Shown here piece after piece: positions 37,275 to 61,366 of a stretch of 64,000 nucleotides of DNA. The first letter of the stretch is position 1. Each line of letters opens with the position of its first letter. Made by a program: the position numbers and the translations under genes. The notes below the pieces were generated by a model, which was given only the letters and a program-made list of their open reading frames with translations, was not told the origin of the DNA and made no database searches. The DNA comes from an uncultured virus (IMG/VR IMGVR_UViG_3300043438_001900) (taxonomy: Duplodnaviria; Heunggongvirae; Uroviricota; Caudoviricetes), in IMG/VR virus record IMGVR_UViG_3300043438_001900. The stretch is one strand, 5' to 3'.

Positions 37275-37518
37275 AATGTTTTTTTATCTGATAATATACA
37301 CAATAAATACCAAATAAAAAACCCCGATTCCTCGGGGTTTAACTTAATTCAACAAAATAATATGTTAAAGTAATTTTTTTTCATATATTCGTATCAAAAT
37401 ATATTCCGAATGAATAAATAAGACAATATGTCAGTTATATCTTTATACTAACTGAAAAAATGTCATCATTTTGTTTTTAGAATTATTTTTGTTATCTTTA
37501 TTAAAAACACATTATATA

Positions 37519-39537
37519 ATGGCAGTAGATTTTTTCGAAGAGGGTCAGACCTCCACTCCAAAGAGGGGTAAAAAGGGTTCTACAACCCCAATCCTTGATA
37601 ACTTTTCAAGGGATTTAAACAAACTTGCCGAAGAGGGTAAAATCGACCCTGTGATTGGTAGAGACAAAGAGGTAAAGAGAATCGCTCAGATTCTTTCAAG
37701 AAAGAAGAAAAACAATGTGGTTGTTGTTGGTGATGCCGGTGTTGGTAAATCTGCTCTTGTTGAGAAATTAGCATTGTTAATTGTTAAAGGTGAATGTCCA
37801 ACCAATCTTTTGGAAAAAAGAATAATGTCGTTGGATTTAACTTCATTAGTTGCAGGTACAAAATACCGTGGACAGTTTGAGGAGAGAATCAAGGCAATTT
37901 TAAATGAGTTACAACACGAACCAAATGTGATTGTCTTTATTGACGAATTACATACAATGATTGGTGCGGGTAATGCAAGTGGTTCAATGGATGCCGCAAA
38001 TATTCTTAAACCCGCATTGGCAAGAGGAGAAATTCAATGTATTGGTGCCACAACTTTTGATGAGTTTAAAAAACATATTGAGAAGGATTCCGCATTAGTT
38101 AGACGTTTCCAAAAGATTATTTTAAAGGAACCGACTCACGAGGAAACCATTCAAATTTTGGATAACCTAAAAGATTCTTATGAAAGTTACCATAAAGTAC
38201 ACTACGAAGATGGTGTTGTTAATATAATTGTTAAACTTTGCGGTCGTTTCATCACGGATAGACAATTCCCCGATAAGGCAATTGATGTATTAGATGAATT
38301 GGGTTCAGATAAAAAAATCAACACTAAGGTTCCCGAAATAATTGAAAAACTAAAAAAAGAATCTGACGAACTTAAAGAAAAAAAGATTCAAGTTGTAAAA
38401 AACCAAAACTACGAGCAGGCGGCGAAACTCAGAGATGAGGAACGTAAAATTCTAACCAAGTTAGAAGAAGAGAAAACATTATGGTTAGACAAACAAAAGG
38501 ATAACAAAGTCCCTGTTTGTGTTGACGATGTTTATGAAATAATCTCACAAATGACAGGTGTCCCAATTACCAAATTGGATGATAGAGAAACTCAAAACCT
38601 ATTAAAATTAGAAGAGAGGTTATCGGCGAAAGTTATTGGTCAGGAAGATGCGATTTCAATTATATCCAAATCAATCAGACGAAATAGGGTTGGTATTAAA
38701 GACACAAACAAACCAATTGGTTCGTTTATCTTTTTAGGTTCGACAGGTGTCGGTAAAACTTACCTCGCCAAGTCTATTGCGGAGTTGTTATTTGGTGACC
38801 CCGAAAAAGTGATTAGAGTAGACATGAGTGAGTTTATGGAAAAACATAATGTATCTCGTTTAATCGGTTCTCCTCCGGGTTATGTTGGTTATGATGAAGG
38901 TGGTCAATTAACTGAGAAGATTAAAAACAATCCATTCTCAGTAGTATTGTTCGATGAGATTGAAAAGGCACACAAAGACGTGTTTAACATCCTACTTCAA
39001 ATTTTAGATGAAGGACATTTAACGGATTCATTTGGTAGGAAGGTTAACTTTACCAATACCATCATTATTATGACCTCTAACGTAGGTGCAAAAAAAGTAT
39101 CAGATTTCGGAGGTGGTGTTGGATTCACAACTAACTCAAGTGAGGAACAAAAACACGAGGTTAGGAAATCAATCATTCAAAAATCTTTGAAACAACATTT
39201 CAATCCCGAGTTTCTTAATCGTATTGATGATATTATTTTGTTTAATAAATTGAATGGTGATACTATTAATAAAATTATCGAAATTGAGTTAGGTAAATTA
39301 CTCATTCGTTTAAAAGAAAAGAATTTCAATGTAGTATTTGATAAAAGTGTAATATCTCGAATTTCCGAGTTAAATATTCAAGAAGAATATGGTGCACGAC
39401 CAATTAAGAGAATCATTCAAAATCTTTGTGAGGATTTCCTCAGTGAAGAGATTTTAAGGGGTTCGATTAAGGAAAACGAACTTACAACATTGAAATTTAA
39501 AGACGGTCAACTAAAAATATTTAAGAAATTGGTATAA
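37519..39537 (+). CDS. clpC: ClpC-like AAA+ ATPase lacking the N-terminal Clp-repeat domain
   Basis: Two AAA modules (GDAGVGKS; GSTGVGKT), UVR-like NYEQAAKLRDEE, LIGSPPGYVGY, GARP; likely start MAVDFF at 37519. Confidence 0.88.
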   Translation: MAVDFFEEGQTSTPKRGKKGSTTPILDNFSRDLNKLAEEGKIDPVIGRDKEVKRIAQILSRKKKNNVVVVGDAGVGKSALVEKLALLIVKGECPTNLLEKRIMSLDLTSLVAGTKYRGQFEERIKAILNELQHEPNVIVFIDELHTMIGAGNASGSMDAANILKPALARGEIQCIGATTFDEFKKHIEKDSALVRRFQKIILKEPTHEETIQILDNLKDSYESYHKVHYEDGVVNIIVKLCGRFITDRQFPDKAIDVLDELGSDKKINTKVPEIIEKLKKESDELKEKKIQVVKNQNYEQAAKLRDEERKILTKLEEEKTLWLDKQKDNKVPVCVDDVYEIISQMTGVPITKLDDRETQNLLKLEERLSAKVIGQEDAISIISKSIRRNRVGIKDTNKPIGSFIFLGSTGVGKTYLAKSIAELLFGDPEKVIRVDMSEFMEKHNVSRLIGSPPGYVGYDEGGQLTEKIKNNPFSVVLFDEIEKAHKDVFNILLQILDEGHLTDSFGRKVNFTNTIIIMTSNVGAKKVSDFGGGVGFTTNSSEEQKHEVRKSIIQKSLKQHFNPEFLNRIDDIILFNKLNGDTINKIIEIELGKLLIRLKEKNFNVVFDKSVISRISELNIQEEYGARPIKRIIQNLCEDFLSEEILRGSIKENELTTLKFKDGQLKIFKKLV

Positions 39538-40362: not shown

Positions 40363-41427
40363 ATGTTAGACATTTTAGAAAGATATCATAAGGATGGTTT
40401 GTTACATAAACAAACCCACCCAACTCTTGATTTGACCATATGGAATTATTCGCCGAAAGTTCAATATGAAAGACTGTGGGATGAGATAACTGTGCAATGT
40501 CGTGGTCTTGTTACTAACAGTAAAGGTGAAATTGTTGCGAAACCATTCAAAAAGTTCTTCAACTATGAAGAACATAAACCAGAAGAAATACCAAATGAGT
40601 ATTTTGAGGTTTATGAAAAAATGGATGGTTCTTTAGGTATATTATTCAACTATAATGGTGAATGGGTAATGGCAACCCGTGGTTCGTTTATTTCTGAACA
40701 ATCAGTTAAAGGTCGTAAGTTACTTGAGAAATATGATTATAATCGGTTACATACCGACTACACTTATTTATTTGAAATAATCTATCCCGAAAATAGAATT
40801 GTGTGTGTTTACGATTTTGAAGATTTAGTTTTATTGGGTGTAATCCACACAGAAAGTGGTAACGAGGTTAATATTCATAACCTCAATAATGAAGATATCC
40901 GATTAAACAACATGATTGGTAATTTAGGTTTCAGAGTCGTTACCTTATATAAAACATGGGGTGAAGGATTTGACGTACTGAAAGAAGAAATATCAAAAGA
41001 TAGAGAAGGATACGTTATTCGTTTTAGAAATGGTTTTCGTATGAAAATCAAAGGGGATGAATATGTCCGTTTGCACCGAATATTAACCAATATATCTAAT
41101 AGAGACATTTGGGAGTATTTGAAAGATGGTAAACCTATGGATGAAATCTTAGATAAAGTACCCGATGAATTTTACGATTGGGTTAAGAACACCAAAAATG
41201 ATTTAATTACACAATTCAATATATTAGAAAAAGAATATCAATGGATATTCAAAGTAACAAACAGGGTTCACGGTATTGAGAATCGTGCAGTCTTTGCTGA
41301 GTACGCAAAAAAATACAAACACCCCAACTTATTATTTAATATGTTGGATGGTAAAGACTATTCGCAACAAATATGGAAACTTCTGTACCCAACATATTCA
41401 AAACCATTTAAAAAAGATGAAATATAG
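40363..41427 (+). CDS. RNA ligase 1 (T4 RnlA-like)
   Basis: CRGLV, KFFNY, EKMDGSLG, FEIIYPENRIV, EGYV, KIKGDEY. Confidence 0.92.
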   Translation: MLDILERYHKDGLLHKQTHPTLDLTIWNYSPKVQYERLWDEITVQCRGLVTNSKGEIVAKPFKKFFNYEEHKPEEIPNEYFEVYEKMDGSLGILFNYNGEWVMATRGSFISEQSVKGRKLLEKYDYNRLHTDYTYLFEIIYPENRIVCVYDFEDLVLLGVIHTESGNEVNIHNLNNEDIRLNNMIGNLGFRVVTLYKTWGEGFDVLKEEISKDREGYVIRFRNGFRMKIKGDEYVRLHRILTNISNRDIWEYLKDGKPMDEILDKVPDEFYDWVKNTKNDLITQFNILEKEYQWIFKVTNRVHGIENRAVFAEYAKKYKHPNLLFNMLDGKDYSQQIWKLLYPTYSKPFKKDEI

Positions 41428-50585: not shown

Positions 50586-50706
50586 AGTTGTAGTTTGTGT
50601 TTGTTTTTATGTTTGGTTATCAATAAATATCCCGGCAAAGTGTTAAGGAAAAAAAATTCGAGAAAATCAAGTCTAAAAAAATTTTATATCTTTTTTGATA
50701 CTTTTC

Positions 50707-50737
50707 TTTGTTTTTTGCATACTTATTGTTATCTTTG
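50707..50737 (+). promoter_or_regulatory. Bacteroidota-type promoter for leader 1 / tRNA block 1
   Basis: TTTG (50707-10), 19 nt, TATCTTTG (50730-37) fits the -33/-7 TTTG...TAnnTTTG consensus. Confidence 0.7.
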
Positions 50738-50768
50738 TAAAAGATTTAAAAACTAAATAAAAAATTCA

Positions 50769-50858
50769 ATGACACGCAACACACATACAATGTCGTTTAC
50801 TATCTGTTCGAAATGGGCGGAAGTGATTGATATTGCCATGTCTCGAGGTGTCTTGTAA
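50769..50858 (+). CDS. Putative attenuator leader peptide 1 (MTRNTHTMSFTICSKWAEVIDIAMSRGVL)
   Basis: 29-codon ORF between promoter and terminator; its codons match the block-1 tRNAs. Confidence 0.75.
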   Translation: MTRNTHTMSFTICSKWAEVIDIAMSRGVL

Positions 50859-50887
50859 GTTGTTTAGTTTTAAAACGATATTAAAGG

Positions 50888-50917
50888 AACCTCGAGAGAA
50901 ATCTCGGGGTTTTTTTT
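50888..50917 (+). terminator. Attenuator terminator 1
   Basis: AACCTCGAGA-GAAA-TCTCGGGGTT plus T-run; 5' arm complementary to TCTCGAGGT (50841-49) in the leader. Confidence 0.85.
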
Positions 50918-50923
50918 GTTTTA

Positions 50924-50996
50924 GGGCTGTTGGTATAGTTGGCTAACACACGACATTTGCACTGTCGAATCCCCGGTTCGAAGCCGGGACGGTCCA
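50924..50996 (+). tRNA. tRNA-Ala(TGC)
   Basis: Cloverleaf, G3:U70, loop TT-TGC-AC. Confidence 0.93.
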
Positions 50997-51027
50997 CAAA
51001 GTGTTCTTTGACATATTGGTTTAATTT

Positions 51028-51100
51028 GGTACCGTAGCTCAGTTGGTAGAGCGTCGCCCTGAAGAGGCGAGCGTCACTGGTTCGAATCCGGTCGGTACCA
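51028..51100 (+). tRNA. tRNA-Phe(GAA)
   Basis: Cloverleaf, loop CT-GAA-GA. Confidence 0.95.
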
Positions 51101-51105
51101 CATTT

Positions 51106-51179
51106 GTCTCCGTAGCTCAGTTGGTTAGAGCACCTCACTTTTAATGAGGGAGTCACGCGTTCGAGTCGCGTCGGGGACA
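51106..51179 (+). tRNA. tRNA-Lys(TTT)
   Basis: Cloverleaf, loop CT-TTT-AA. Confidence 0.95.
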
Positions 51180-51321
51180 CAAAGGTTGATTGGGGAATGA
51201 TTATGTCGATAGTTCGAGAGTGAATACTGACTGACATAATCGGAGTTTGGAGGTGTTCACCTAAGTAATGCCAATCATAAAAGTAGATGTCCACTGAACC
51301 ATCTTCTACTTTCCTTTATTT

Positions 51322-51394
51322 AGTTCCGTAGCTCAGTTGGGAGAGCATCTGCCTTACATGCAGAGGGTCACTGGTTCGAACCCAGTCGGAACTA
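51322..51394 (+). tRNA. tRNA-Val(TAC)
   Basis: Cloverleaf, loop CT-TAC-AT. Confidence 0.95.
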
Positions 51395-51403
51395 CAAATA
51401 CAC

Positions 51404-51475
51404 ATGGGTGTGGTGCAATGGTTAGCATAAGAGTCTCCAAAACTTTTGATGGGAGTTCGAGTCTCTCCACCCGTG
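51404..51475 (+). tRNA. tRNA-Trp(CCA)
   Basis: Cloverleaf, loop CT-CCA-AA. Confidence 0.93.
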
Positions 51476-51496
51476 CAAACTTTAAAAACAAATAAC

Positions 51497-51925
51497 ATGG
51501 AAAGAGATGACAACATCGATGCCGTCAAAATGAGATTTGAGGCGGAGAAAATGAAATTAAGGGAAGAAAGGGAAAAAACAATTAAACAGTATTGGGAAAA
51601 TTTACCAAAACTTAATAATCCTGAAGATGTACCAACACTCCCAAGAGTTGATGAAAAACAATGGAGGGAGTTTTATGTCCCAAAATTAATCGAAGCGGGA
51701 GCAATCCCAAAAAATGATTTAATTCATGGTCAAATTTATATTGGTGAACATAGAAACACAACCATCGCAAGATGGAATCAAGAAACAGATAAATTTGTAC
51801 ACATGAGATATAAGTTTGGTTGGAGAGAAGATGAATGTAATCACTTTGAGGATGATAATGGATTTGCGTTGTTTGTACCAATTAGATTGGGTACACAAGA
51901 AGAATGGGATGAAAGAATTAAATAA
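51497..51925 (+). CDS. Hypothetical protein within the tRNA array
   Basis: Likely start MERDD at 51497 (the longer ORF overlaps tRNA-Trp). Confidence 0.65.
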   Translation: MERDDNIDAVKMRFEAEKMKLREEREKTIKQYWENLPKLNNPEDVPTLPRVDEKQWREFYVPKLIEAGAIPKNDLIHGQIYIGEHRNTTIARWNQETDKFVHMRYKFGWREDECNHFEDDNGFALFVPIRLGTQEEWDERIK

Positions 51926-51932
51926 TTAAGTT

Positions 51933-52006
51933 ACTCTCGTAGTTCAATGGATTAGAACATTTCACTACGGATGAAAGGGTTGGGAGTTCGAGTCTCTCCG
52001 AGAGTA
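51933..52006 (+). tRNA. tRNA-Arg(ACG)
   Basis: Cloverleaf, loop CT-ACG-GA. Confidence 0.93.
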
Positions 52007-52012
52007 CGATAA

Positions 52013-52082
52013 GGTCAGTTTGGTCGTGGAGGCCGGTTAGTCTGCAAAATTAACGGAGTTGGTTCGATTCCAACATTGACCT
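52013..52082 (+). tRNA. tRNA-Cys(GCA)
   Basis: Cloverleaf with short D-arm, loop CT-GCA-AA, U73. Confidence 0.85.
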
Positions 52083-52088
52083 CAATAT

Positions 52089-52166
52089 GGTGGATATAGT
52101 TCAGTTGGTTAGAACGTCTGATTGTGGTTCAGAAGGTCGCCGGTTCGAATCCGGTTATTCACCCCA
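52089..52166 (+). tRNA. tRNA-His(GTG)
   Basis: G-1, C73, encoded CCA, loop TT-GTG-GT. Confidence 0.95.
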
Positions 52167-52169
52167 TAT

Positions 52170-52243
52170 TGGAATATAACTCAGTTGGTTAGAGTGTCAT
52201 CCTGATACGGTGAAAGTCGGTGGTTCGAGTCCACCTATTCCAA
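52170..52243 (+). tRNA. tRNA-Ile(GAT)
   Basis: Cloverleaf, loop CT-GAT-AC. Confidence 0.93.
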
Positions 52244-52250
52244 CAAACAT

Positions 52251-52324
52251 TGCGGGGTGGTCTGGAGAGGTTCCAGCTCGGTCTCATAAGCCGAATCACG
52301 TGGGTTCGATTCCCACTCCCGCAA
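52251..52324 (+). tRNA. tRNA-Met(CAT), initiator-like acceptor stem
   Basis: TGCGGGG acceptor, loop CT-CAT-AA; initiator versus elongator not resolved. Confidence 0.88.
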
Positions 52325-52388
52325 CTTTTTAAAAACATTTTGAAGTGTGACTTTTATTATGTATATTTGAAATGTTCTTTGATTTAAT

Positions 52389-52465
52389 GCCTCCTTAGCT
52401 CAGTTGGCCGGAGCGCCTCACTTGTAATGAGGATGTCGGCGGTTCGAATCCGTCAGGAGGCTCCA
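52389..52465 (+). tRNA. tRNA-Thr(TGT)
   Basis: Cloverleaf, loop CT-TGT-AA, encoded CCA. Confidence 0.95.
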
Positions 52466-52467
52466 TT

Positions 52468-52540
52468 GGTCCCGTGGTTGAATGGTTACAATTCCACCCT
52501 GTCACGGTGCGAGGTACGGGTTCGAATCCCGTCGGGACCG
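52468..52540 (+). tRNA. tRNA-Asp(GTC)
   Basis: Cloverleaf, loop CT-GTC-AC, G73. Confidence 0.92.
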
Positions 52541-52752
52541 CGTTGAGTAAGAGATACTCACTAAGTTTGGTAACGTTCTTTCAAGATGTTATAGTTGTCG
52601 CCTTCCACAACTTTAAAGAGGAGGTCGTCGGAGTATGGTCGTAACAAAACCACCGAGTATGTTTGACGTTTATGTGCGGGTAAGACCGTCTCGTGTTTTC
52701 AATACGAAAACAGAAGAAAAATCTACTCATTGGAATCTCAGGTGGGAAAATT

Positions 52753-52838
52753 GGAAGGATGGCAGAGTTGGTCTATCGCATCGGTCTTGAAAACCGAAGT
52801 ACTGAAAGGTACCGTGGGTTCGAATCCTACTCCTTCCG
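52753..52838 (+). tRNA. tRNA-Ser(TGA)
   Basis: Long variable arm, loop CT-TGA-AA, G73. Confidence 0.95.
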
Positions 52839-52884
52839 CAAACGATTGTTGTTCTTTGACAAATTAAAAACAAAATTAAAAGAT

Positions 52885-53175
52885 ATGGATACATTATCAT
52901 TTATTTTAGGAATGTCCTCGGTGGTGGTTATCGCAATTGCGGTAGTTGCTGTTAAAGGATTTTTTAAGGTCAGAAATGTTGAGAAACACTTCAATGAATA
53001 CAAACAAAACTTTACAGTTGAGTTTGATAATAGAACAAAAGATATTCATGATAGTATGAATCGTGTGAATGATGAATTACATCGTAGAATTGATAACACA
53101 GAAAGAGAAGTCTTTTCCCAATTAGACTCTCGATTAGATAAATTGGAAACTAAGTTAACGAGCCGTAAGGCATAA
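52885..53175 (+). CDS. Membrane-anchored coiled-coil protein
   Basis: Likely start MDTLSFILG at 52885; one TM then coiled coil. Confidence 0.7.
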   Translation: MDTLSFILGMSSVVVIAIAVVAVKGFFKVRNVEKHFNEYKQNFTVEFDNRTKDIHDSMNRVNDELHRRIDNTEREVFSQLDSRLDKLETKLTSRKA

Positions 53176-53209
53176 TAAATAAATCGTTAAAGACAACAAT
53201 CGTTTATAT

Positions 53210-53281
53210 GGCCCTTTCGACTATCGGTTAGGTCGTCAGGTTTTCATCCTGAAAAGTCGGGTTCGATTCCCGGAGGGGCTA
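53210..53281 (+). tRNA. tRNA-Glu(TTC)
   Basis: Cloverleaf, loop TT-TTC-AT. Confidence 0.93.
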
Positions 53282-53304
53282 CAATGGAATTAAATTAAAC
53301 CAAT

Positions 53305-53544
53305 ATGTTAGAAAGAATATTAGGAATTTACGAAGATGAAGGATTACTTATCGCTGATGGATTCGATGATGCAGTAATTGGAATTGATGAATCGTCAATG
53401 AGAGTAATCTATTCGGTTGCCAAATGTCTCCACATTTTAGAACGTGATATGGAGATGATTGATGCGATTGAATACTTTGAATTTAACGTAAAAGGCGCAT
53501 ACGTTGGAGACAAGACTCCGATATGGTGTGAAGATTTTTTTTAA
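53305..53544 (+). CDS. Hypothetical protein
   Basis: ADGFDDAVIG...EYFEFNVKGAYVGDKTPIW, 79 aa. Confidence 0.65.
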   Translation: MLERILGIYEDEGLLIADGFDDAVIGIDESSMRVIYSVAKCLHILERDMEMIDAIEYFEFNVKGAYVGDKTPIWCEDFF

Positions 53545-53546
53545 TT

Positions 53547-53756
53547 ATGATTAATTATTTAGGTTACTTCGCAACATTCTTAACTCTACTTTCTTTTTCT
53601 TTTAAAAATATTACAAAATTAAGAATTGTTAGTTCAACGTCATGTGTGTTTTGGATTGTTTATGGGTGTTTAAAAAATGATTATCCAATCATCAGCACAA
53701 ATGTTTTAATAATCATAATACATGTGTACTACCTACTAAAAACAAAAAATAAATAA
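53547..53756 (+). CDS. Small membrane protein (YgjV/PQ-loop-like)
   Basis: LGYFAT..LLSF...LRIV...FWIVYG...YPII..N. Confidence 0.65.
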   Translation: MINYLGYFATFLTLLSFSFKNITKLRIVSSTSCVFWIVYGCLKNDYPIISTNVLIIIIHVYYLLKTKNK

Positions 53757-53789
53757 ACTTTTGTATATTTGTATATACTTATTAAAACA

Positions 53790-53888
53790 ATGATGAACTT
53801 GGATAACATACAACAACTGTCTAACAACCCGATAAGTGGTAATGGGAGAGGTACGTATTTATGTCACCCAAGTTCGGAATCCAAATGA
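53790..53888 (+). CDS. Putative attenuator leader peptide 2 (MMNLDNIQQLSNNPISGNGRGTYLCHPSSESK)
   Basis: 32-codon ORF after TATATTTG (53764-71) and before a terminator; its codons match the block-2 tRNAs. Confidence 0.75.
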   Translation: MMNLDNIQQLSNNPISGNGRGTYLCHPSSESK

Positions 53889-53916
53889 ATGTAAGAATTT
53901 TAAACTCTATACTCAC

Positions 53917-53953
53917 GAGACCCGAACATCCCAAAAAGATTTTCGGGTTTTTT
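53917..53953 (+). terminator. Attenuator terminator 2
   Basis: AGACCCGAA-C-ATC / GAT-T-TTCGGGTTT plus T-run; CCGAAC complementary to GTTCGG (53872-77) in the leader. Confidence 0.8.
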
Positions 53954-54016
53954 GTTTTTAGAGATATTCTTTTGTATATTTGTGATGTAGTTCTTTGACA
54001 TGTTGGTGAAAAAAAT

Positions 54017-54101
54017 GCTGAGGTGATGGAATGGTAGACATGACAGACTTAAAATCTGTTGAGTAGTAATGCTCGTGTGGGTTCGACTCCCATCCTCAGT
54101 A
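54017..54101 (+). tRNA. tRNA-Leu(TAA)
   Basis: Long variable arm, loop CT-TAA-AA. Confidence 0.95.
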
Positions 54102-54312
54102 CAAAAAACAATACCTTACATAAGACGGATTAGCACCGTTGAAAGGAACCTTGGCTTCAATCGGAGTAATTACCGTAACCGAAGTAATAATGACCCAAGG
54201 TACTATGTGATGGACCCTGCTCTATGGTGCACTCATAACAGGTGAACAGTAAACTATGTTCAATCAAATTCAAAACCACGGTGAGCGTGGAAGGTATTGT
54301 TTTTTATTTAAC

Positions 54313-54387
54313 GCACCCGTAGCTCAGCTGGATTAGAGCAACTGCCTTCTAAGCAGTAGGTCACAGGTTCGAATCCTGTCGGGTGTA
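54313..54387 (+). tRNA. tRNA-Arg(TCT)
   Basis: Cloverleaf, loop CT-TCT-AA. Confidence 0.95.
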
Positions 54388-54428
54388 CAAATGGAGTCCT
54401 TTACTTTATCCTTTTATATTCATATAAT

Positions 54429-55073
54429 ATGGAAAAAAGTATGAGATATAAAAAAAAATTAAACAGTGAGTGTAAATGGTGTGGGGAAACCTTTAATGTA
54501 GAAGATAAACCAAAAGGTTTCATGGCAAATCATAGTAGATGGTGTGTAAAAAACCCAAATAAAAATGATTACATGAAAACTCTATCAAAAAATAGAAAAT
54601 CAATTACCGAAGAATCCAGAAAATTGGCAGGAAAATCGATATCGAAAGCATGGGAAAACGGTTCGTATTCTCATGTTAAGTTTAATAGCTTCCAAGGAAG
54701 AACACACACCGAAGAAGCGAAAGAAAAAATAAGAAGAGCACAACTATTATTAAATTACCGAAGACTTAGAAAACATCAAGTAATGTATAAAGATGTGTTA
54801 TTAGATAGTAGTTGGGAATTAGCGTTAGCAATCCGTTTAGATGAATTAAACATAAAATGGATACGACCTGAACGCATTATGTGGATTGATAAAAATAATT
54901 TAAAACGTTCATATTATCCTGATTTTTATTTAAACGATTATGATATGTATTTGGACCCAAAAAATCCAGCGGCATATCAAAATCAAATTGAAAAAATTGA
55001 AATTTTAAAAAACACAATTCCAAATTTAAAGTTCATTTTAAGTTTGAAAGAATGTAAGGAGTTTAACATATAG
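54429..55073 (+). CDS. Free-standing homing-endonuclease-like protein (Zn finger + NUMOD3-like + PD-(D/E)XK)
   Basis: CKWC...HSRWC; GRTHTEEAKEKIR; DSSWE...YYPDFYL...YLDPKN. Confidence 0.75.
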   Translation: MEKSMRYKKKLNSECKWCGETFNVEDKPKGFMANHSRWCVKNPNKNDYMKTLSKNRKSITEESRKLAGKSISKAWENGSYSHVKFNSFQGRTHTEEAKEKIRRAQLLLNYRRLRKHQVMYKDVLLDSSWELALAIRLDELNIKWIRPERIMWIDKNNLKRSYYPDFYLNDYDMYLDPKNPAAYQNQIEKIEILKNTIPNLKFILSLKECKEFNI

Positions 55074-55145
55074 GGAATTAGCGTAGTTCGGTATCGCGCT
55101 TGGTTTGGGACCAAGAGGTCGTCAGTTCGAATCTGGCATTCCCTA
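55072..55145 (+). tRNA. tRNA-Pro(TGG)
   Basis: Cloverleaf, loop TT-TGG-GA. Confidence 0.93.
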
Positions 55146-55150
55146 CAAAT

Positions 55151-55224
55151 TCCTCGATAGCTCAGTCGGTTAGAGCATTTGACTGTTAATCAAAGGGTCC
55201 CAAGTTCGAGTCTTGGTCGGGGAG
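55151..55224 (+). tRNA. tRNA-Asn(GTT)
   Basis: Cloverleaf, loop CT-GTT-AA. Confidence 0.95.
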
Positions 55225-55233
55225 CAAATAAAT

Positions 55234-55307
55234 ACCTTCGTAGGAGAACTGGTATATCCACTGCACTTAGGATGCAGATTTTGTGGGTTCGAATCCCACC
55301 GAAGGTA
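55234..55307 (+). tRNA. tRNA-Leu(TAG) with short variable loop
   Basis: Cloverleaf, loop CT-TAG-GA, variable region only ATTTT. Confidence 0.85.
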
Positions 55308-55312
55308 CAAAT

Positions 55313-55440
55313 AGTCAGGTGGCGGAAAGATTACGGCGCTGGGATAAAAACTGGGGCCTTGATAATCGTGGTAGACGCCCTGTTTCTAGACGATGGCCGA
55401 AAGCAAGATTTCGGTACAGGTTCAAATCCTGTCCTGACTA
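55313..55440 (+). ncRNA. tRNA-like RNA with D-loop insertion and irregular anticodon arm
   Basis: Acceptor AGTCAGG/CCTGACT-A, T-arm ACAGG-TTCAAAT-CCTGT, Leu-type TGGCGGAA...TGGTAGACGC split by ~40 nt. Confidence 0.75.
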
Positions 55441-55450
55441 CAAACATTAT

Positions 55451-55532
55451 TGGAAGGTGGGTGAGTGGTTAAAACCGACAGACTGTAAATCTGTTCCCAT
55501 TGGGTACGGGGGTTCAAATCCCTCCCTTCCAA
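55451..55532 (+). tRNA. tRNA-Tyr(GTA)
   Basis: Long variable arm, loop CT-GTA-AA. Confidence 0.95.
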
Positions 55533-55548
55533 CTTAAAAATTATTATT

Positions 55549-56124
55549 ATGGCAAGAAGTAAAATTTTATCTGACTTATTAAAATCCATAACTCCTGAAA
55601 TGGAAGAAAAGTGGAAACAGGAAAGAATGAATTATAAAAAAAGTTTAAGTATCGAATATCAATTGGGGTATTATGTTGGGTTGGAAATTGTACATCGTTA
55701 CTTACCAACACTATCAACTGATATGATTCAATCGAATTATGTAATTGAGGTATCTCAGATGGATTCTGAGGAGAACAAACGATTAGAAGTGGAATGGTTC
55801 ACAACCACCAAACACGGTGGAGAATGGGATGGTAAAAGTGATAACGGTAATAAAGAAAGATGGGATGATTTATTTGACCACAATAAAATGTTGGAGGTAA
55901 AATATCTACCACATACTTTAACATGTCACATGGATGTTTTGAACATCAACGACATGAAACAATTTAAAGAGGGAATAAGAACAAGTCTATGGGATTGTGA
56001 TATGTGTTCATATAATATCGATATCGAAAACATAAAAATTTATGACGATGAGGATATTAGATTTACAATTATTGAATTCACATTGGATTCATTAAATGAT
56101 ACTAAAACAGATGAAGAGATTTAA
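55549..56124 (+). CDS. Hypothetical protein
   Basis: 191-aa ORF. Confidence 0.6.
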   Translation: MARSKILSDLLKSITPEMEEKWKQERMNYKKSLSIEYQLGYYVGLEIVHRYLPTLSTDMIQSNYVIEVSQMDSEENKRLEVEWFTTTKHGGEWDGKSDNGNKERWDDLFDHNKMLEVKYLPHTLTCHMDVLNINDMKQFKEGIRTSLWDCDMCSYNIDIENIKIYDDEDIRFTIIEFTLDSLNDTKTDEEI

Positions 56125-56800
56125 GATTATATCAGTAGTGGTGGTAACACTAACAATTTTATTTGCGTCACTCATGTTAATTTCAAGTCAATCCTTGAAA
56201 AGTGTGAAGGTAAAAAAAGATGTGGTTAAATCACCGTCTTTAAATGTGGATACGGTTGTTGATGTGAATGGTAAACATGTTTTGTTTATTGGTGATTCTC
56301 ACACCGCAAATCATGACTTTGGTTGGCAAGTTATTCTGTGTCAGAAAACGGGGATGAAAATGAATAACACCGCAGTTATAGGTAAACACTTACCATGGAT
56401 GGTATCTGTCGCAAGACAAACAATTTCACCCTATTATGATTATTGTTTTATCTACGGTGGTGCAAATGATATCCATGGAAATCGAAATCCATATTCTGTT
56501 GTTAAAGACGTTCAGAAGATTGTTGAGATGTGCACAATGAATGGGGTTGAGGCAATTGTTCTTACAGGGTTTAATGCAGAAGAATGTGTTAGACCGTTAA
56601 AAGGACAAGAATTTTATCCAAAGGCGTACACTCGTTATCAAAAAATATTGATGGATAGTATCGTAGATGCAACTGTTGTTGATACAAGAGTGGTGGTGAG
56701 AACGGATTGCGGTGATTGGACTTGTCACATGCACCCAACGGGACATAGAAAAGTGGCAAACGCAGTTATTAAACAAATGAACTTTAAAACAAAAAACTGA
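56096..56800 (+). CDS. Membrane-anchored SGNH/GDSL hydrolase
   Basis: N-terminal TM; FIGDSHT, GGAND, HMHPTGHRKVA. Confidence 0.85.
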   Translation: MILKQMKRFKIISVVVVTLTILFASLMLISSQSLKSVKVKKDVVKSPSLNVDTVVDVNGKHVLFIGDSHTANHDFGWQVILCQKTGMKMNNTAVIGKHLPWMVSVARQTISPYYDYCFIYGGANDIHGNRNPYSVVKDVQKIVEMCTMNGVEAIVLTGFNAEECVRPLKGQEFYPKAYTRYQKILMDSIVDATVVDTRVVVRTDCGDWTCHMHPTGHRKVANAVIKQMNFKTKN

Positions 56801-57405
56801 TGACAAAATATACCTTAGTAATCGGTGGTTGGGAGTTGAACGCTTCCGGTCATCAACTCACAAACGAAGAAGTTGTAAAACTTAGAAACCACATGTCTGA
56901 AAATGGTATCGATGATTTAAGTTCAATGGGATTTGACATTGAAGAAGTTTTAAATTATGATATATTCGATGCGAATATGTGGGTGATGGATAAACCTCTT
57001 TGGAATGGTACACCACACTTCATGGTATTCAAATCGGATGACATGGAAAATAGAGTTCTTGAATTCGAAGAAAAAGAAATGTCTGACCATTATGAAGTAG
57101 ATGAAGATGCAGATTACGGTGACACATTTAACGGATTTCCAATTGAAGGTGAGGAGGAAAATATCATCCTTTGGTTAGAAGAAAATAAAGGATGGGTATG
57201 TGACTTTGAATTTGAGTCTGATGAAATTCCAACTGCAAAAGATTTCAGTATGGTTGGTGGTTGTATTGAAACACCTAACGGAGATTGGGACTTTATTGAT
57301 AAAATGTACTTCAAGGGTAAAGAACTTCAGATGGACTTTAACCACCAAGAAACTCGAGGTAAGGCATTAACAATAGAACTTTGGACATTAGAGAATACCA
57401 AATAA
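56800..57405 (+). CDS. Hypothetical acidic protein
   Basis: 201-aa ORF, coupled. Confidence 0.6.
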   Translation: MTKYTLVIGGWELNASGHQLTNEEVVKLRNHMSENGIDDLSSMGFDIEEVLNYDIFDANMWVMDKPLWNGTPHFMVFKSDDMENRVLEFEEKEMSDHYEVDEDADYGDTFNGFPIEGEEENIILWLEENKGWVCDFEFESDEIPTAKDFSMVGGCIETPNGDWDFIDKMYFKGKELQMDFNHQETRGKALTIELWTLENTK

Positions 57406-57413
57406 TTCTTTAA

Positions 57414-57487
57414 GGACCCTTAGCTCAGTTGGTTAGAGCAACTGACTCATAATCAGTAGGTCACAGGTTCGAGCCCTGTAGGGTCCA
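57414..57487 (+). tRNA. tRNA(CAT), probably Ile2 (lysidine, reads AUA)
   Basis: Loop CT-CAT-AA; GGACCCTTAGCTCAG body resembles Ile2 tRNAs; leader 2 contains two ATA codons. Confidence 0.85.
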
Positions 57488-57620
57488 CACATGTGGTCGT
57501 ACACTTAACTCCAATACCCGAAAGGGAAATCGTTATGTGAAGGCCACTCCCCTTGGTAGACCTTAAAAAGGGCCCTTCCGTTGGTACGACAACGGCTCGC
57601 TGGGCCCGGGTCTACTTTTT

Positions 57621-57692
57621 GCGAATATCGTATAGTGGTTATTACTCCATCCTTCCAAGTTGGAGACGACAGTTCGATTCTGTCTATTCGCT
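57621..57692 (+). tRNA. tRNA-Gly(TCC)
   Basis: GCG acceptor, loop CT-TCC-AA, U73. Confidence 0.92.
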
Positions 57693-57697
57693 CATAT

Positions 57698-57768
57698 TAT
57701 CCTCTCGTCTAATGGCAGGACCTCAGATTTTGATTCTGATTGTCGAGGTTCGAATCCTCGGGGGATAA
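57698..57768 (+). tRNA. tRNA-Gln(TTG)
   Basis: U1-A72, loop TT-TTG-AT. Confidence 0.93.
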
Positions 57769-57781
57769 CTAAAAACACAAT

Positions 57782-57870
57782 GGAAGGTTACCCAAGTTGG
57801 TGAAGGGGGCAGTTTGCTAAATTGTTAGGGTGTCACAGCCGCGAGGGTTCGAGCCCCTCACCTTCCGCCA
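57782..57870 (+). tRNA. tRNA-Ser(GCT)
   Basis: Long variable arm, loop TT-GCT-AA, G-CCA end. Confidence 0.93.
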
Positions 57871-57903: not shown

Positions 57904-58365
57904 ATGAAAATTTTTAAGACATTACACGGAACACCGGTAAATGACATCATCAACTACATCAAAGATTACCTAAAAGGACGAGAAGACGTTGAACTATTAA
58001 TTGGTTCAGACTCACAATCGTTTAGTAATTCTAAAACAGTGTATGGGGTTGTTATTGCTCTTTACACAAAAGGAAAAGGTGCACACGTGTTATGTACTAA
58101 AGATACAACTCCTTTTGAAAAAGACACATCTAGTAGATTAATGACTGAGGTATGGAAGGCGGTAGAAATTGCTGAGTTCCTTAGAGAAAATGGATTACCA
58201 AGGGCATCATGGATTGATATCGACTTGAATCCTGACCCAAGATATAAATCAAACAAAGTTCTAAGACAGGCGGTTGGTTTAGTTGAAGGTATGGGTTATA
58301 GAGTTAGATATAAACATAACGGTGCAATGATAACCTATAGTGCGAACCACTTAGTAAGAATATAA
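57904..58365 (+). CDS. RNase H-like YkuK (DUF458) family protein
   Basis: IGSDSQ, RLMTEVWKAVEIA, IDIDLN, SANH. Confidence 0.8.
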   Translation: MKIFKTLHGTPVNDIINYIKDYLKGREDVELLIGSDSQSFSNSKTVYGVVIALYTKGKGAHVLCTKDTTPFEKDTSSRLMTEVWKAVEIAEFLRENGLPRASWIDIDLNPDPRYKSNKVLRQAVGLVEGMGYRVRYKHNGAMITYSANHLVRI

Positions 58366-58793
58366 TGGAAAAGAACATCAACATAGTTAACAGACGTGCA
58401 AAATTCGAATATCATTTTATTGATACCCTCATTGCGGGGGTATCATTGAATGGTGTTGAAGTTAAGTTCATTAGGAAGGGACATTTAACTTTTACACCTG
58501 ATTCGTTTTGTCATTTTCAAAATGGTGAACTGTTCTTAAAGAATGTTACCATATCGGGAATTGGTGATGATAACATGAAGAGAGATAGAAAATTGTTACT
58601 CAAGAAAAAAGAGTTGACTAAACTTAATAAAGAACTCACCAACGGTTTAACAATTATACCATATCGTTTATTTGAGAATGATAGAGGAATGTTTAAAGTT
58701 GAAGTGTGTCTTGCCAAAGGAAAAAAACTTCACGATAAACGTGAGACAATTAAAGAAAGAGATATTCAAAGGGAAATAAAAAATTTCCACTAA
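58365..58793 (+). CDS. smpB: SsrA-binding protein SmpB
   Basis: NRRAKFEY, AGVSLNGVEVKFIR, RDRKLLLKKKE, GLTIIP, LAKGKKLHDKRETIKERD. Confidence 0.93.
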   Translation: MEKNINIVNRRAKFEYHFIDTLIAGVSLNGVEVKFIRKGHLTFTPDSFCHFQNGELFLKNVTISGIGDDNMKRDRKLLLKKKELTKLNKELTNGLTIIPYRLFENDRGMFKVEVCLAKGKKLHDKRETIKERDIQREIKNFH

Positions 58794-61027: not shown

Positions 61028-61054
61028 ATCACCTGTCAGTTCTTTGAAATATTA

Positions 61055-61366
61055 ATGTGGCTATGTGAGTCACTGAGAGGATAACCTTTACCTATTATAG
61101 GTGACCACGTAGTGGTACTATCTTAGGTCTTAGAGAAGGTGAAAGTATCGGTGCAAATGTCTTACTTCTAACATACAAAAATCAGATACAACGTTAGACA
61201 CACAATTCTCCACATAAACTTATTGACGGCTATGTACCGGGTTACTTCTACAAAACAATTGGATGTTAAACCACCCGTACTCTTTCCGTCTACCTTATTA
61301 CCGGCTATGAGTGTAGTTACTTCTAAACCTATCTAAATGAAAAAACCACTCGTTCAATTTCCGGTA
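61055..61366 (+). ncRNA. Array of three related hairpin RNAs (GGCTATG...TTACTTCTA)
   Basis: Units 61055-61215, 61225-61290, 61299-61366 share two motifs and have covarying stems. Confidence 0.75.

Follow-up and report, generated by a model that had tools for sequence, protein, structure and literature searches.

Attenuation of the trp type switches between alternative RNA pairings (1:2, 2:3, and 3:4), the antiterminator being released when regulatory codons slow the ribosome. In the enterobacterial leaders trpL, hisL, leuL, and pheL, and in the multivalent leaders thrL and ilvGMEDA, a short open reading frame (ORF) with runs of codons for one to three amino acids lies between a promoter and an intrinsic terminator, and the genes regulated encode biosynthetic enzymes. 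The pheST (pheM) leader of E. coli is an attenuator that senses Phe codons and controls the phenylalanyl-tRNA synthetase genes. T-box riboswitches are terminator/antiterminator switches that monitor tRNA status and control translation-related genes. The control of tRNA genes is usually thought to act at the promoter. In this study we analyzed a stretch of 64,000 nucleotides (the window) from an uncultured virus of the Caudoviricetes (IMG/VR record IMGVR_UViG_3300043438_001900), in which two blocks of tRNA genes are each preceded by a promoter motif, a short leader ORF, and an intrinsic terminator. The codons of each leader list the tRNAs of the block behind it, and both leaders are likely to be ribosome-mediated attenuators that sense decoding at codons recognized by the gated tRNAs.

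The phage leaders resemble the enterobacterial amino-acid leaders in having a short ORF between promoter and intrinsic terminator and in showing three alternative pairings in predicted folds. They differ in preceding tRNA genes instead of genes for biosynthetic enzymes, in listing 10–16 tRNA classes with mostly 1–3 codons each, in having the start-codon region as region 1, and in being borne by phages in a Bacteroidota-type setting. Runs of codons for a single amino acid were not found in them, the regulated genes would be tRNAs, and the listing of codons sets them apart from the amino-acid operon leaders. Like pheST, they appear to use a decoding-sensing leader peptide to control a component of the translation apparatus; however, pheST senses one amino acid (Phe) and its target is a gene for a synthetase protein. 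A T-box recognizes a single uncharged tRNA by direct binding at its specifier codon and requires no ribosome, whereas the phage leaders are proposed to have many codons read in frame by a ribosome. The Rfam families of amino-acid operon leaders (His, Thr, Trp, Leu) had no match in the window at the gathering score. The T-box model also had none there, where only tRNA and freshwater-1 RNA reached that score, and none in the related locus L096 at E ≤ 0.1.

No description of leader-peptide attenuation of tRNA genes was found in the full-text literature covered, a scope that excluded supplementary files and most subscription journals. That literature treats attenuators of the classical kinds (amino-acid, antibiotic-resistance, and Mg2+) and, as further topics, the tRNAs of phages and defences that target tRNAs. 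PMC10264068 makes no mention of attenuation, leader, terminator, or promoter, and PMC13015707 none of attenuation, leader peptide, terminator, or tRNA expression. The class of mechanism is known; new would be the regulated genes (tRNAs), the list-type multiplex sensor, and the phage setting.

ARAGORN found 24 tRNAs in the window, all on the + strand, and the Rfam tRNA model was concordant. With ordinary wobble these tRNAs decode all 20 amino acids. Features of the two blocks and their leaders are collected in Table 1. Block-1 tRNAs decode 22 of the 23 codons from 2 to 24 of leader 1, AAC being the sole exception, and this stretch has no Leu, Pro, Gln, Tyr, or Gly codon. In leader 2, 19 of the 22 codons from 3 to 24 are decoded by block-2 tRNAs (the exceptions are GAT, TCT, and ACG), and 10/10 block-2 tRNAs are covered, provided that the CAT tRNA at 57414 decodes ATA. 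The split extends to isoacceptors: CGC vs AGA for Arg, ATC/ATT vs ATA for Ile, and TCG vs AGT for Ser, with TTG, TTA, and CTG in leader 2 only. An earlier note, prepared from the sequence letters, had reported the anticodons and coordinates of both blocks, these codon counts with full tRNA coverage, the isoacceptor split, and a complementarity between the end of each leader ORF and the 5′ arm of the next terminator; on recomputation each of these agreed. By-eye comparison showed no relation between codon order in leader 1 and tRNA gene order.

Table 1. Positions of the leader regions, tRNA blocks, and associated elements. Positions are those of the window except for the last row. Pairings are predicted.
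Feature	Positions	Strand	Details
Promoter P1 of leader 1	50707..50737	+	exact TTTG-N19-TATCTTTG match
Region 1 of leader 1 (anti-antiterminator)	50767..50775	+	start-codon region CAAUGACAC; predicted pairing with GUGUCUUG at 50848-50855
Leader 1 ORF	50769..50858	+	29 codons; peptide MTRNTHTMSFTICSKWAEVIDIAMSRGVL, then stop; codons 2-24 list all 14 block-1 tRNAs
Internal hairpin of leader 1	50783..50841	+	long hairpin in predicted fold, mid-ORF
Region 2 of leader 1 (antiterminator strand)	50841..50849	+	UCUCGAGGU, codons 25-27; pairs with 50889-50897
Intrinsic terminator 1	50889..50917	+	5′ arm ACCUCGAGA (50889-50897), GAAA loop, 3′ arm UCUCGGGGU, U8
tRNA block 1	50924..53282	+	14 tRNAs with small ORFs interspersed (ARAGORN, Rfam): Ala-TGC, Phe, Lys, Val, Trp, Arg-ACG, Cys, His, Ile-GAT, Met-CAT, Thr, Asp, Ser-TGA, Glu
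Promoter-like -7 element P2	53764..53771	+	TATATTTG, upstream of leader 2
Leader 2 ORF	53790..53888	+	32 codons; peptide MMNLDNIQQLSNNPISGNGRGTYLCHPSSESK, then stop; codons 3-24 list all 10 block-2 tRNAs
Region 1 of leader 2	53795-53802	+	GAACUUGG; pairs with CCAAGUUC (1:2)
Region 2 of leader 2	53868-53877	+	CCAAGUUCGG
Intrinsic terminator 2	53920..53953	+	ACCCGAA ... UUCGGGU and U run
Second promoter-like element P2′	53975..53982	+	TATATTTG with -33 TTTG, in the gap from terminator 2 to tRNA-Leu-TAA
tRNA block 2	54017..57870	+	10 tRNAs with four ORFs interspersed (ARAGORN, Rfam): Leu-TAA, Arg-TCT, Pro, Asn, Leu-TAG, Tyr, CAT (probably Ile2), Gly-TCC, Gln, Ser-GCT
Leader A of Cellulophaga phage phi17:2 (NC_021798)	87518-87586		ORF MKIQRLHLQELEQPIISGGTGV, then stop, behind TATGTTTG promoter motif; unannotated

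Chance expectations were taken from the codon usage of window ORFs of at least 200 aa (13,093 codons), in which block-1 codons make up 0.618. The probability of 22 or more of 23 codons in set 1 was 2.3e-4, and that of 23 codons covering all 14 classes was 6e-6. For leader 2, the probability of 19 or more of 22 codons in set 2 was 3e-6 by simulation and 4.6e-6 by the binomial, and that of 22 codons covering all 10 block-2 classes was 4.6e-4. Among the 281 window ORFs of 25–40 codons beginning with ATG, one had at least 22/23 codons in set 1 and two had 4/23 or fewer. The codon split between the two window leaders is far from chance. Per leader, 12–17 tRNA classes are represented within codons 2–24.

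The two CAT tRNAs differ in their Rfam scores, 40.7 bits for the block-1 copy (52251-52325) and 75.5 bits for the block-2 copy (57414-57488). ARAGORN labels the latter as Met; however, where a CAT tRNA of the block-2 type occurs, its gating leader has ATA codons and hardly any or no internal ATG codons. It is probably a tRNA-Ile2 (lysidine).

Relatives were collected through the 79-aa ORF between the blocks, which gave 106 relatives in IMG/VR; 80 loci were kept, 12 of them with a tRNA array, and all 12 array-bearing loci carry both leaders as ORFs. Searches for terminator 1 were performed without any constraint on the leader. The antiterminator-plus-terminator pattern yielded 22 viral loci, and the terminator alone yielded at least 120 stretches of metagenome contigs, of which 72 combined a leader ORF with a tRNA no more than 400 nt downstream; the counts that follow are among the matches listed. 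Because these loci were gathered by terminator sequence only, the sampling was blind to leader codons. Two stretches, L235 and L126, were dropped as unrelated (Val-AAC, no convincing antiterminator in either, and no leader ORF in L126), L081 was dropped as a chance match lacking tRNAs, and the remaining pattern matches were terminators in unrelated contigs.

For the tests, codons and tRNAs were sorted into 22 classes, the boxes of Arg, Ser, and Leu being counted separately. The ATG and ATA codons and the CAT and TAT tRNAs were excluded, because the identity of CAT tRNAs is ambiguous. A block began at its terminator and was closed by the following leader-terminator module or, failing that, by the array end, with tRNA-Leu-TAA also serving as a boundary. 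Modules were excluded if they had fewer than four tRNAs, or if the contig ended less than 1,500 nt from the last tRNA with no boundary in between. tRNA calls were those of ARAGORN, its '???' entries being ignored, supplemented by blastn for an odd Ala-like tRNA described below. This gave 54 modules, 42 of them distinct and complete (31 leader-1 and 11 leader-2), with 18 block-1 tRNA compositions.

Within codons 2–24, 728 of 881 codons belonged to the gated block; permuted pairings of leaders and blocks averaged 0.487 and never exceeded 0.656, with 0/100,000 at the observed value. For leader 1 alone the count was 528/651 (0/100,000 permutations) and for leader 2 alone 200/230 (10/100,000), the latter being a weak test because the leader-2 blocks are all alike. 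A point to be set against these permutation counts is that they overstate independence, because the sequences are related, and they are not to be read as probabilities. Coverage was nearly complete: 428 of the 431 gated tRNA classes had at least one codon in their own leader (permuted mean 273, maximum 361), the uncovered ones being Arg-ACG in L099 and L166 and Glu in L127. For each of the 22 classes, a codon was found in 92–100% of leaders when the block has the tRNA vs 0–65% otherwise. In 11/11 distinct genomes with two leaders, the leaders were split by block (Fisher's p from 2e-4 to 3e-9); pooled over these genomes, own-block and other-block codons numbered 192 vs 25 in leader 1 and 200 vs 21 in leader 2. 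Comparison of nearest neighbours (n = 25 pairs) showed the own leader to be better in 16, equal in 5, and worse in 4. The covariation of leader codons with downstream tRNAs that the earlier note had put forward as a check was borne out over the 42 distinct modules, and the leaders, whose lack of conservation as ORFs would have spoken against that note, are kept as ORFs in 57 distinct leader-1 DNA sequences and 23 distinct leader-2 regions. All sequence-level predictions of the note were thus upheld, and it is this comparison of relatives that we regard as decisive.

The match is not spread evenly along the ORF. For codons 4–22 it was 469/552 (0.85) in leader 1 and 167/191 (0.87) in leader 2. 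Tail codons, from 25 to the end and lying over or behind the antiterminator strand, matched in only 83/211 (0.39) and 49/108 (0.45) cases, and codons 2–3 of leader 1 in only 33/60. In many relatives codon 2 is AGA, which is part of a GAGAC that pairs with GUCUC of the antiterminator strand; this pairing explains the otherwise wrong Arg-TCT codon at that position. As judged from the sequences, leader codons match the block only in that portion of the ORF at which a stalled ribosome would leave the antiterminator strand free.

Relocated tRNAs were accompanied by rewritten leaders. In L099 and L107, a group of tRNAs (Met, Gly, Thr, Asp, Pro, Glu, Met, Arg-TCT) stands behind a plain promoter with no leader, and the leader MKNQIHNQISLYLQKWNACVFAKNKPRLEMF precedes the next block, which holds the Ala-like tRNA, Gln, Ile-TAT, Asn, Lys, Leu-TAG, Val, Phe, Tyr, and Ile-GAT, followed by Arg-ACG, Cys, Trp, Met, His, and Ser-GCT. 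The scored codons of the L099 leader include 22 for its own block and none for the ungated block upstream. In L017 and L096, the Val, Asp, and Ser-TGA tRNAs are in block 2 (Asp by Rfam only), and leader 1 (MKRFTHITFTTFATKWCAMGEIG...) has no V, S, or D ahead of the antiterminator. In the L145 type, block 2 includes the Thr and Val tRNAs; leader 2 (MTNTNNILTLTSRPVNNGNGYGVQ...) has gained four Thr and two Val codons, and in leader 1 the Val codon is gone and one Thr codon remains vs four in the window. L125 has its Glu, Val, and Asp tRNAs in an ungated block, and KWAEVxD of the leader has become KWTAIRH. The leaders of L127 and L134 use codons for P, N, Q, Y, W, T, S, D, and E, in agreement with their blocks.

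These rewritten leaders bear on the possibility that the attenuators report general translation capacity, so that any global slowing of ribosomes, as by amino-acid starvation, ribosome-targeting toxins, or uncoupling of transcription from translation, would open them and the varied codons serve only to avoid bias. Such an architecture would indeed answer any slow ribosome, and the phage also encodes other functions that maintain translation, SmpB (58365-58793) and an Rnl1-like RNA ligase (40363-41427). A sensor of general capacity, however, would have no need for block-specific lists, for avoidance of the codons of the other block, or for rewriting of its leader upon relocation of a tRNA, and we consider this explanation improbable.

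The order of promoter, short ORF, intrinsic terminator, and tRNA leaves no space for a promoter before tRNA-Ala, which begins 6 nt after the U run of terminator 1. The P1 sequence corresponds to TTTG-N19-TAnnTTTG, which we take to be the Bacteroidota promoter consensus. In the distinct relatives, TAnnTTTG was found 10–70 nt 5′ of the leader-1 ATG in 56/62 and 5′ of leader 2 in 18/24. The first tRNA lay within 15 nt of the T run in 54/62.

The predicted folds give each window leader the layout of a trp-type attenuator, with a 1:2 pairing, an antiterminator (2:3), and a terminator (3:4). The minimum-free-energy fold of 50745-50925 was −60.8 kcal/mol (z = −8.0; 0/200 shuffles as stable); for the leader-2 region z was −2.2. 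In leader 1, GUGUCUUG sits just behind the antiterminator strand of the predicted fold, and the internal hairpin is a possible pause hairpin. The complementarity between ORF end and terminator is that of UCUCGAGGU with ACCUCGAGA in leader 1, and in leader 2 that of GUUCGG (53872-53877) with CCGAAC inside 53921-53927. Eleven diverse leader-1 regions were folded in three states: in full, with the 5′ part masked and the 3′ arm removed, and with the ORF end masked. In 11/11 the full sequence gave 1:2 and 3:4, masking of the 5′ part gave 2:3, and masking of the ORF end gave 3:4. The logic of these predicted folds is that of the trp attenuator.

An antiterminator duplex with the terminator 5′ arm was predicted in 60/60 distinct leader-1 regions (−9.5 to −23 kcal/mol). 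In the alignment, 87.4% of cells pair, vs 28–49% with a slid partner. At the leader-1 pair 108–181, opposite the variable arm base, changes were compensatory (CG 30, UG 20, UA 8, other 2). The conservation of terminator 1 proves nothing by itself, because the search pattern fixed its sequence; the motif AUGUCUCGA is retained even where the overlying reading frame differs between leaders. The 23 distinct leader-2 regions gave predicted energies of −11.6 to −16.1 for the terminator, −10 to −14.2 for the antiterminator, and −8.6 to −17.9 kcal/mol for 1:2. Their antiterminator extension covaries with the loop-side arm bases (AAGUUCGG/CCGAACUU vs GUGUUCGG/CCGAACAC). The 1:2 pairing between start-codon region and region 2 is predicted in minimum-free-energy folds with a register that varies among subfamilies, so that no single covariation test applies to it.

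If the leader-terminator units were instead self-contained small genes for a peptide or small RNA, the tRNAs would be transcribed from other promoters and the likeness in codons would be co-adaptation. Consistent with this, a promoter-like element follows terminator 2 in most relatives and another lies inside block 1, and the peptide core SFTICSKWAEV is kept in 20 of 24 leaders of 29 codons. On the other hand, a promoter motif lies between terminator 1 and the closely adjoining first tRNA in only 1/62 relatives, the ORF end competes for the terminator 5′ arm in every leader-1 region (60/60) and leader-2 region (23/23), and the peptides diverge freely yet follow the tRNA sets, which their tail codons fail to do. 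There is, moreover, no known reason for a link between peptide composition and one tRNA block only, and we regard such self-contained genes as very improbable. Least credible of all is a T-box-like RNA switch that binds tRNAs or a protein directly, with an incidental ORF: the strong structure of leader-1 RNA and the conservation of the terminator and AUGUCUCGA at the nucleotide level across frames would suit it, but no T-box or other Rfam family matched over the window leaders at the gathering score or over either leader of L096 (9800-17400, scanned at E ≤ 0.1), the signal resides in in-frame codons that list 10–16 classes and are confined to codons 4–22, the ORF is kept in the 57 distinct sequences, and an RNA of ~150 nt is implausible as a specific binder of 14 different tRNAs.

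A cultured phage provides what appears to be an independent repeat of the attenuator design, with two modules. Cellulophaga phage phi17:2 (NC_021798) is a siphovirus of 145 kb with 24 tRNAs by Rfam, 23 of them in one array. Codons 4–14 of its leader A (Q R L H L Q E L E Q P) correspond exactly to the seven tRNAs that follow: Pro, Glu, Gln, His, Leu-TAG, Leu-TAA, and Arg-ACG. The strand CGGGAGGU of this leader pairs with the terminator 5′ arm, and the U run stops a few bases before tRNA-Pro. Leader B has a second copy of the promoter upstream, and its ORF most likely starts at GTG 88478; it is the annotated hypothetical gp077 (NC_021798 88442-88561), whose annotated TTG start lies inside the promoter. 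All 17 of its codons from 4 to 20 (T K T G I T V I D K T K G A R A Y) are represented in the next block (Ala, Lys, Ile, Gly, CAT, Asp, Thr, Val, Arg-TCT, CAT, Tyr), if ATA is counted as decoded by one of the two CAT tRNAs. Leader B also ends in a strand that pairs with a terminator, which adjoins tRNA-Ala. Given the codon usage of phi17:2 (8,990 codons), the probability of 11/11 for leader A was 2e-7 and that of 17/17 for leader B was 4e-5. The phi17:2 terminators have no evident sequence likeness to those of the window.

We propose the following sequence of events. Host RNA polymerase would start at the Bacteroidota-type promoter and transcribe the leader. With no ribosome, region 1 would pair with region 2, the 3:4 terminator would form, and transcription would stop before the first tRNA. 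With fast translation, the ribosome at the ORF end would cover region 2, and the terminator would form again. A ribosome slowed at any listed codon (approximately codons 4–22) would keep regions 1 and 2 apart and leave region 2 free to pair with the terminator 5′ arm (2:3), and polymerase would read into the tRNA genes. The tRNA block is thus probably made when ribosomes read the leader codons slowly, and the device would be an any-of-N sensor of decoding speed feeding back on the supply of the listed tRNAs. Possible natural triggers are a host tRNA pool that decays as infection proceeds, host tRNAs that do not meet the codon demand of the phage, and tRNA cleavage by defence nucleases; plain feedback between supply and demand fits equally well as a host anticodon-nuclease trigger, which the earlier note had named as an example. 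We give an even chance to the broader view that phage tRNA arrays are closed-loop homeostats which replace scarce or nuclease-cut tRNAs, occur in unrelated Bacteroidota phages (a ~310-kb T4-like freshwater phage and the 145-kb Cellulophaga siphovirus), and have their lists rewritten by selection when tRNAs move.

Several observations weigh against this attenuator model or limit it. The TAnnTTTG of P2′ is exact in 16/24 distinct relatives, with near-matches in the others, and because this element follows terminator 2, the gating of block 2 may be leaky, with basal transcription that is independent of the attenuator. Block 1 itself contains another complete promoter-like match, TTTG-N19-TATATTTG, at 52339-52369 (+), in the gap separating the CAT tRNA from tRNA-Thr. 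The motif GTTCTTTGACATNTTGG, which occurs at 51003-51019 and 53990-54006 (+), ~10 nt before tRNA-Phe and tRNA-Leu-TAA, could be a processing signal or a phage-specific promoter, and a promoter would weaken the gating. The blocks span 2.4 and 3.9 kb and contain ORFs, and read-through to the distal tRNAs at 57414-57870 is presumed. Leader translation, termination at the hairpins, and stall-dependent read-through are events that we infer, and the helices and their energies are predictions. Variable sites at codon positions 1, 2, and 3 numbered 5, 6, and 9 of 19, a weak third-position excess.

Other points of this kind concern codons for absent tRNAs. All four losses in the nearest-neighbour comparison involve L088, which has lost tRNA-Phe and kept the Phe codons. 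L119 has lost its Phe, Lys, and Val tRNAs and retained their codons, surplus codons for lost tRNAs are found in L166 (Phe, Tyr, Val) and L138 (His, Ile), and L149 is partly adapted. Precision was low in L163 (10/22), L149 (10/20), and leader 2 of L165 (10/21). We interpret the surplus codons as evolutionary lag; a recall of ~100% vs a precision of 83% fits selection for a codon per gated tRNA with weak selection against surplus. In phi17:2, gp078 (90383-90484, annotated hypothetical) precedes Ser, Asn, Trp, and Phe tRNAs and contains 4/4 of their classes, but only 6 of its first 16 post-start codons are in the block classes and it has no clear terminator; it was not counted as a module.

Weaker copies of GTTCTTTGACATNTTGG occur at 52851-52867 and 61039-61055. 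Relatives keep the motif ahead of tRNA-Phe and tRNA-Leu-TAA, and the Flavobacterium phage vB_FspM_immuto has a similar CCGTTCTTTGAAAT after its tRNA-Cys (L242 ~1036-1049). Public RNA sequences were of little help. Five RNA runs contained 5–14% of sampled words, mostly tRNA cross-matches from other organisms, and the leader-1 region was nearly uncovered. Two RNA contigs from two studies, X3 (53833-54014) and X4 (53819-54006), span terminator 2 and end just before tRNA-Leu; DNA carry-over is possible and neither ends nor levels are visible in them, and they were not used as evidence.

If the attenuator model is true, transcription of tRNAs is set by the speed at which the matching codons are read, a direct feedback from decoding to supply. 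The model bears on why phages carry tRNAs, since the design is sensible only if shortage of specific tRNAs is real and variable. As a natural multiplex sensor with 10 to 16 inputs in ~25 codons, the leader is also of interest for synthetic biology. For annotation, its codon list would predict which tRNAs are co-transcribed, where operon boundaries lie, and what ambiguous CAT tRNAs decode. Cellulophaga baltica #17 and phage phi17:2 are a cultured pair with two clean examples, which makes the model testable now.

Window genes for a T4-type major head protein, portal, and terminase indicate a large phage. Its nearest cultured capsid relatives, at ~30–40% identity, are vB_FspM_immuto and Rhodothermus phage RM378; vB_FspM_immuto was considered as a cultured example and rejected, having only four tRNAs and no evident leader-terminator. 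A Bacteroidota host is indicated by a window protein with a type-IX-secretion sorting domain together with the TAnnTTTG promoter motifs. A blastn search of 50600-54100 against cultured phages gave tRNA cross-matches only and no close relative, and tblastn of the 79-aa inter-block ORF against cultured phages matched Bacillus phages only. The nearest record among those covered, G001 (310,691 bp), diverges beyond window position ~57300 into other sequence that carries a tRNA-Asn. Far from its array, G001 has two 121-nt matches to the tRNA model with an equal score of 37.3 bits (64240-64360 and 65985-66105, − strand), possibly tRNA-like elements or tRNAs with an interruption.

Beside the tRNA array, the phage encodes a set of functions in RNA repair and ribosome rescue. 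It consists of the Rnl1-like ligase (+ strand; phrog_562, E 5e-71), SmpB (+ strand; Pfam E 1e-40), an RNase H-like protein (57904-58365, +; PF04308), and a Lon-like ATP-dependent protease (37471-39537, +). Inside block 2, between tRNA-Leu-TAA and tRNA-Arg-TCT, lies a freshwater-1 RNA (RF02979; 54206-54268, +; 73.4 bits vs a gathering score of 72). This RNA was also found in 5/7 relatives scanned (L086, L088, L089, L090, L097), and in the first four of these it is flanked by the same two tRNAs. The odd Ala-like tRNA, represented by L096 10125-10194, has the anticodon loop TTTGCAA, a G3:U70 pair, and irregular acceptor and D arms, and scores 32.5 bits with Rfam. It was overlooked by ARAGORN; the same element occurs in 39 loci, and in many relatives it substitutes for the normal tRNA-Ala just after terminator 1.

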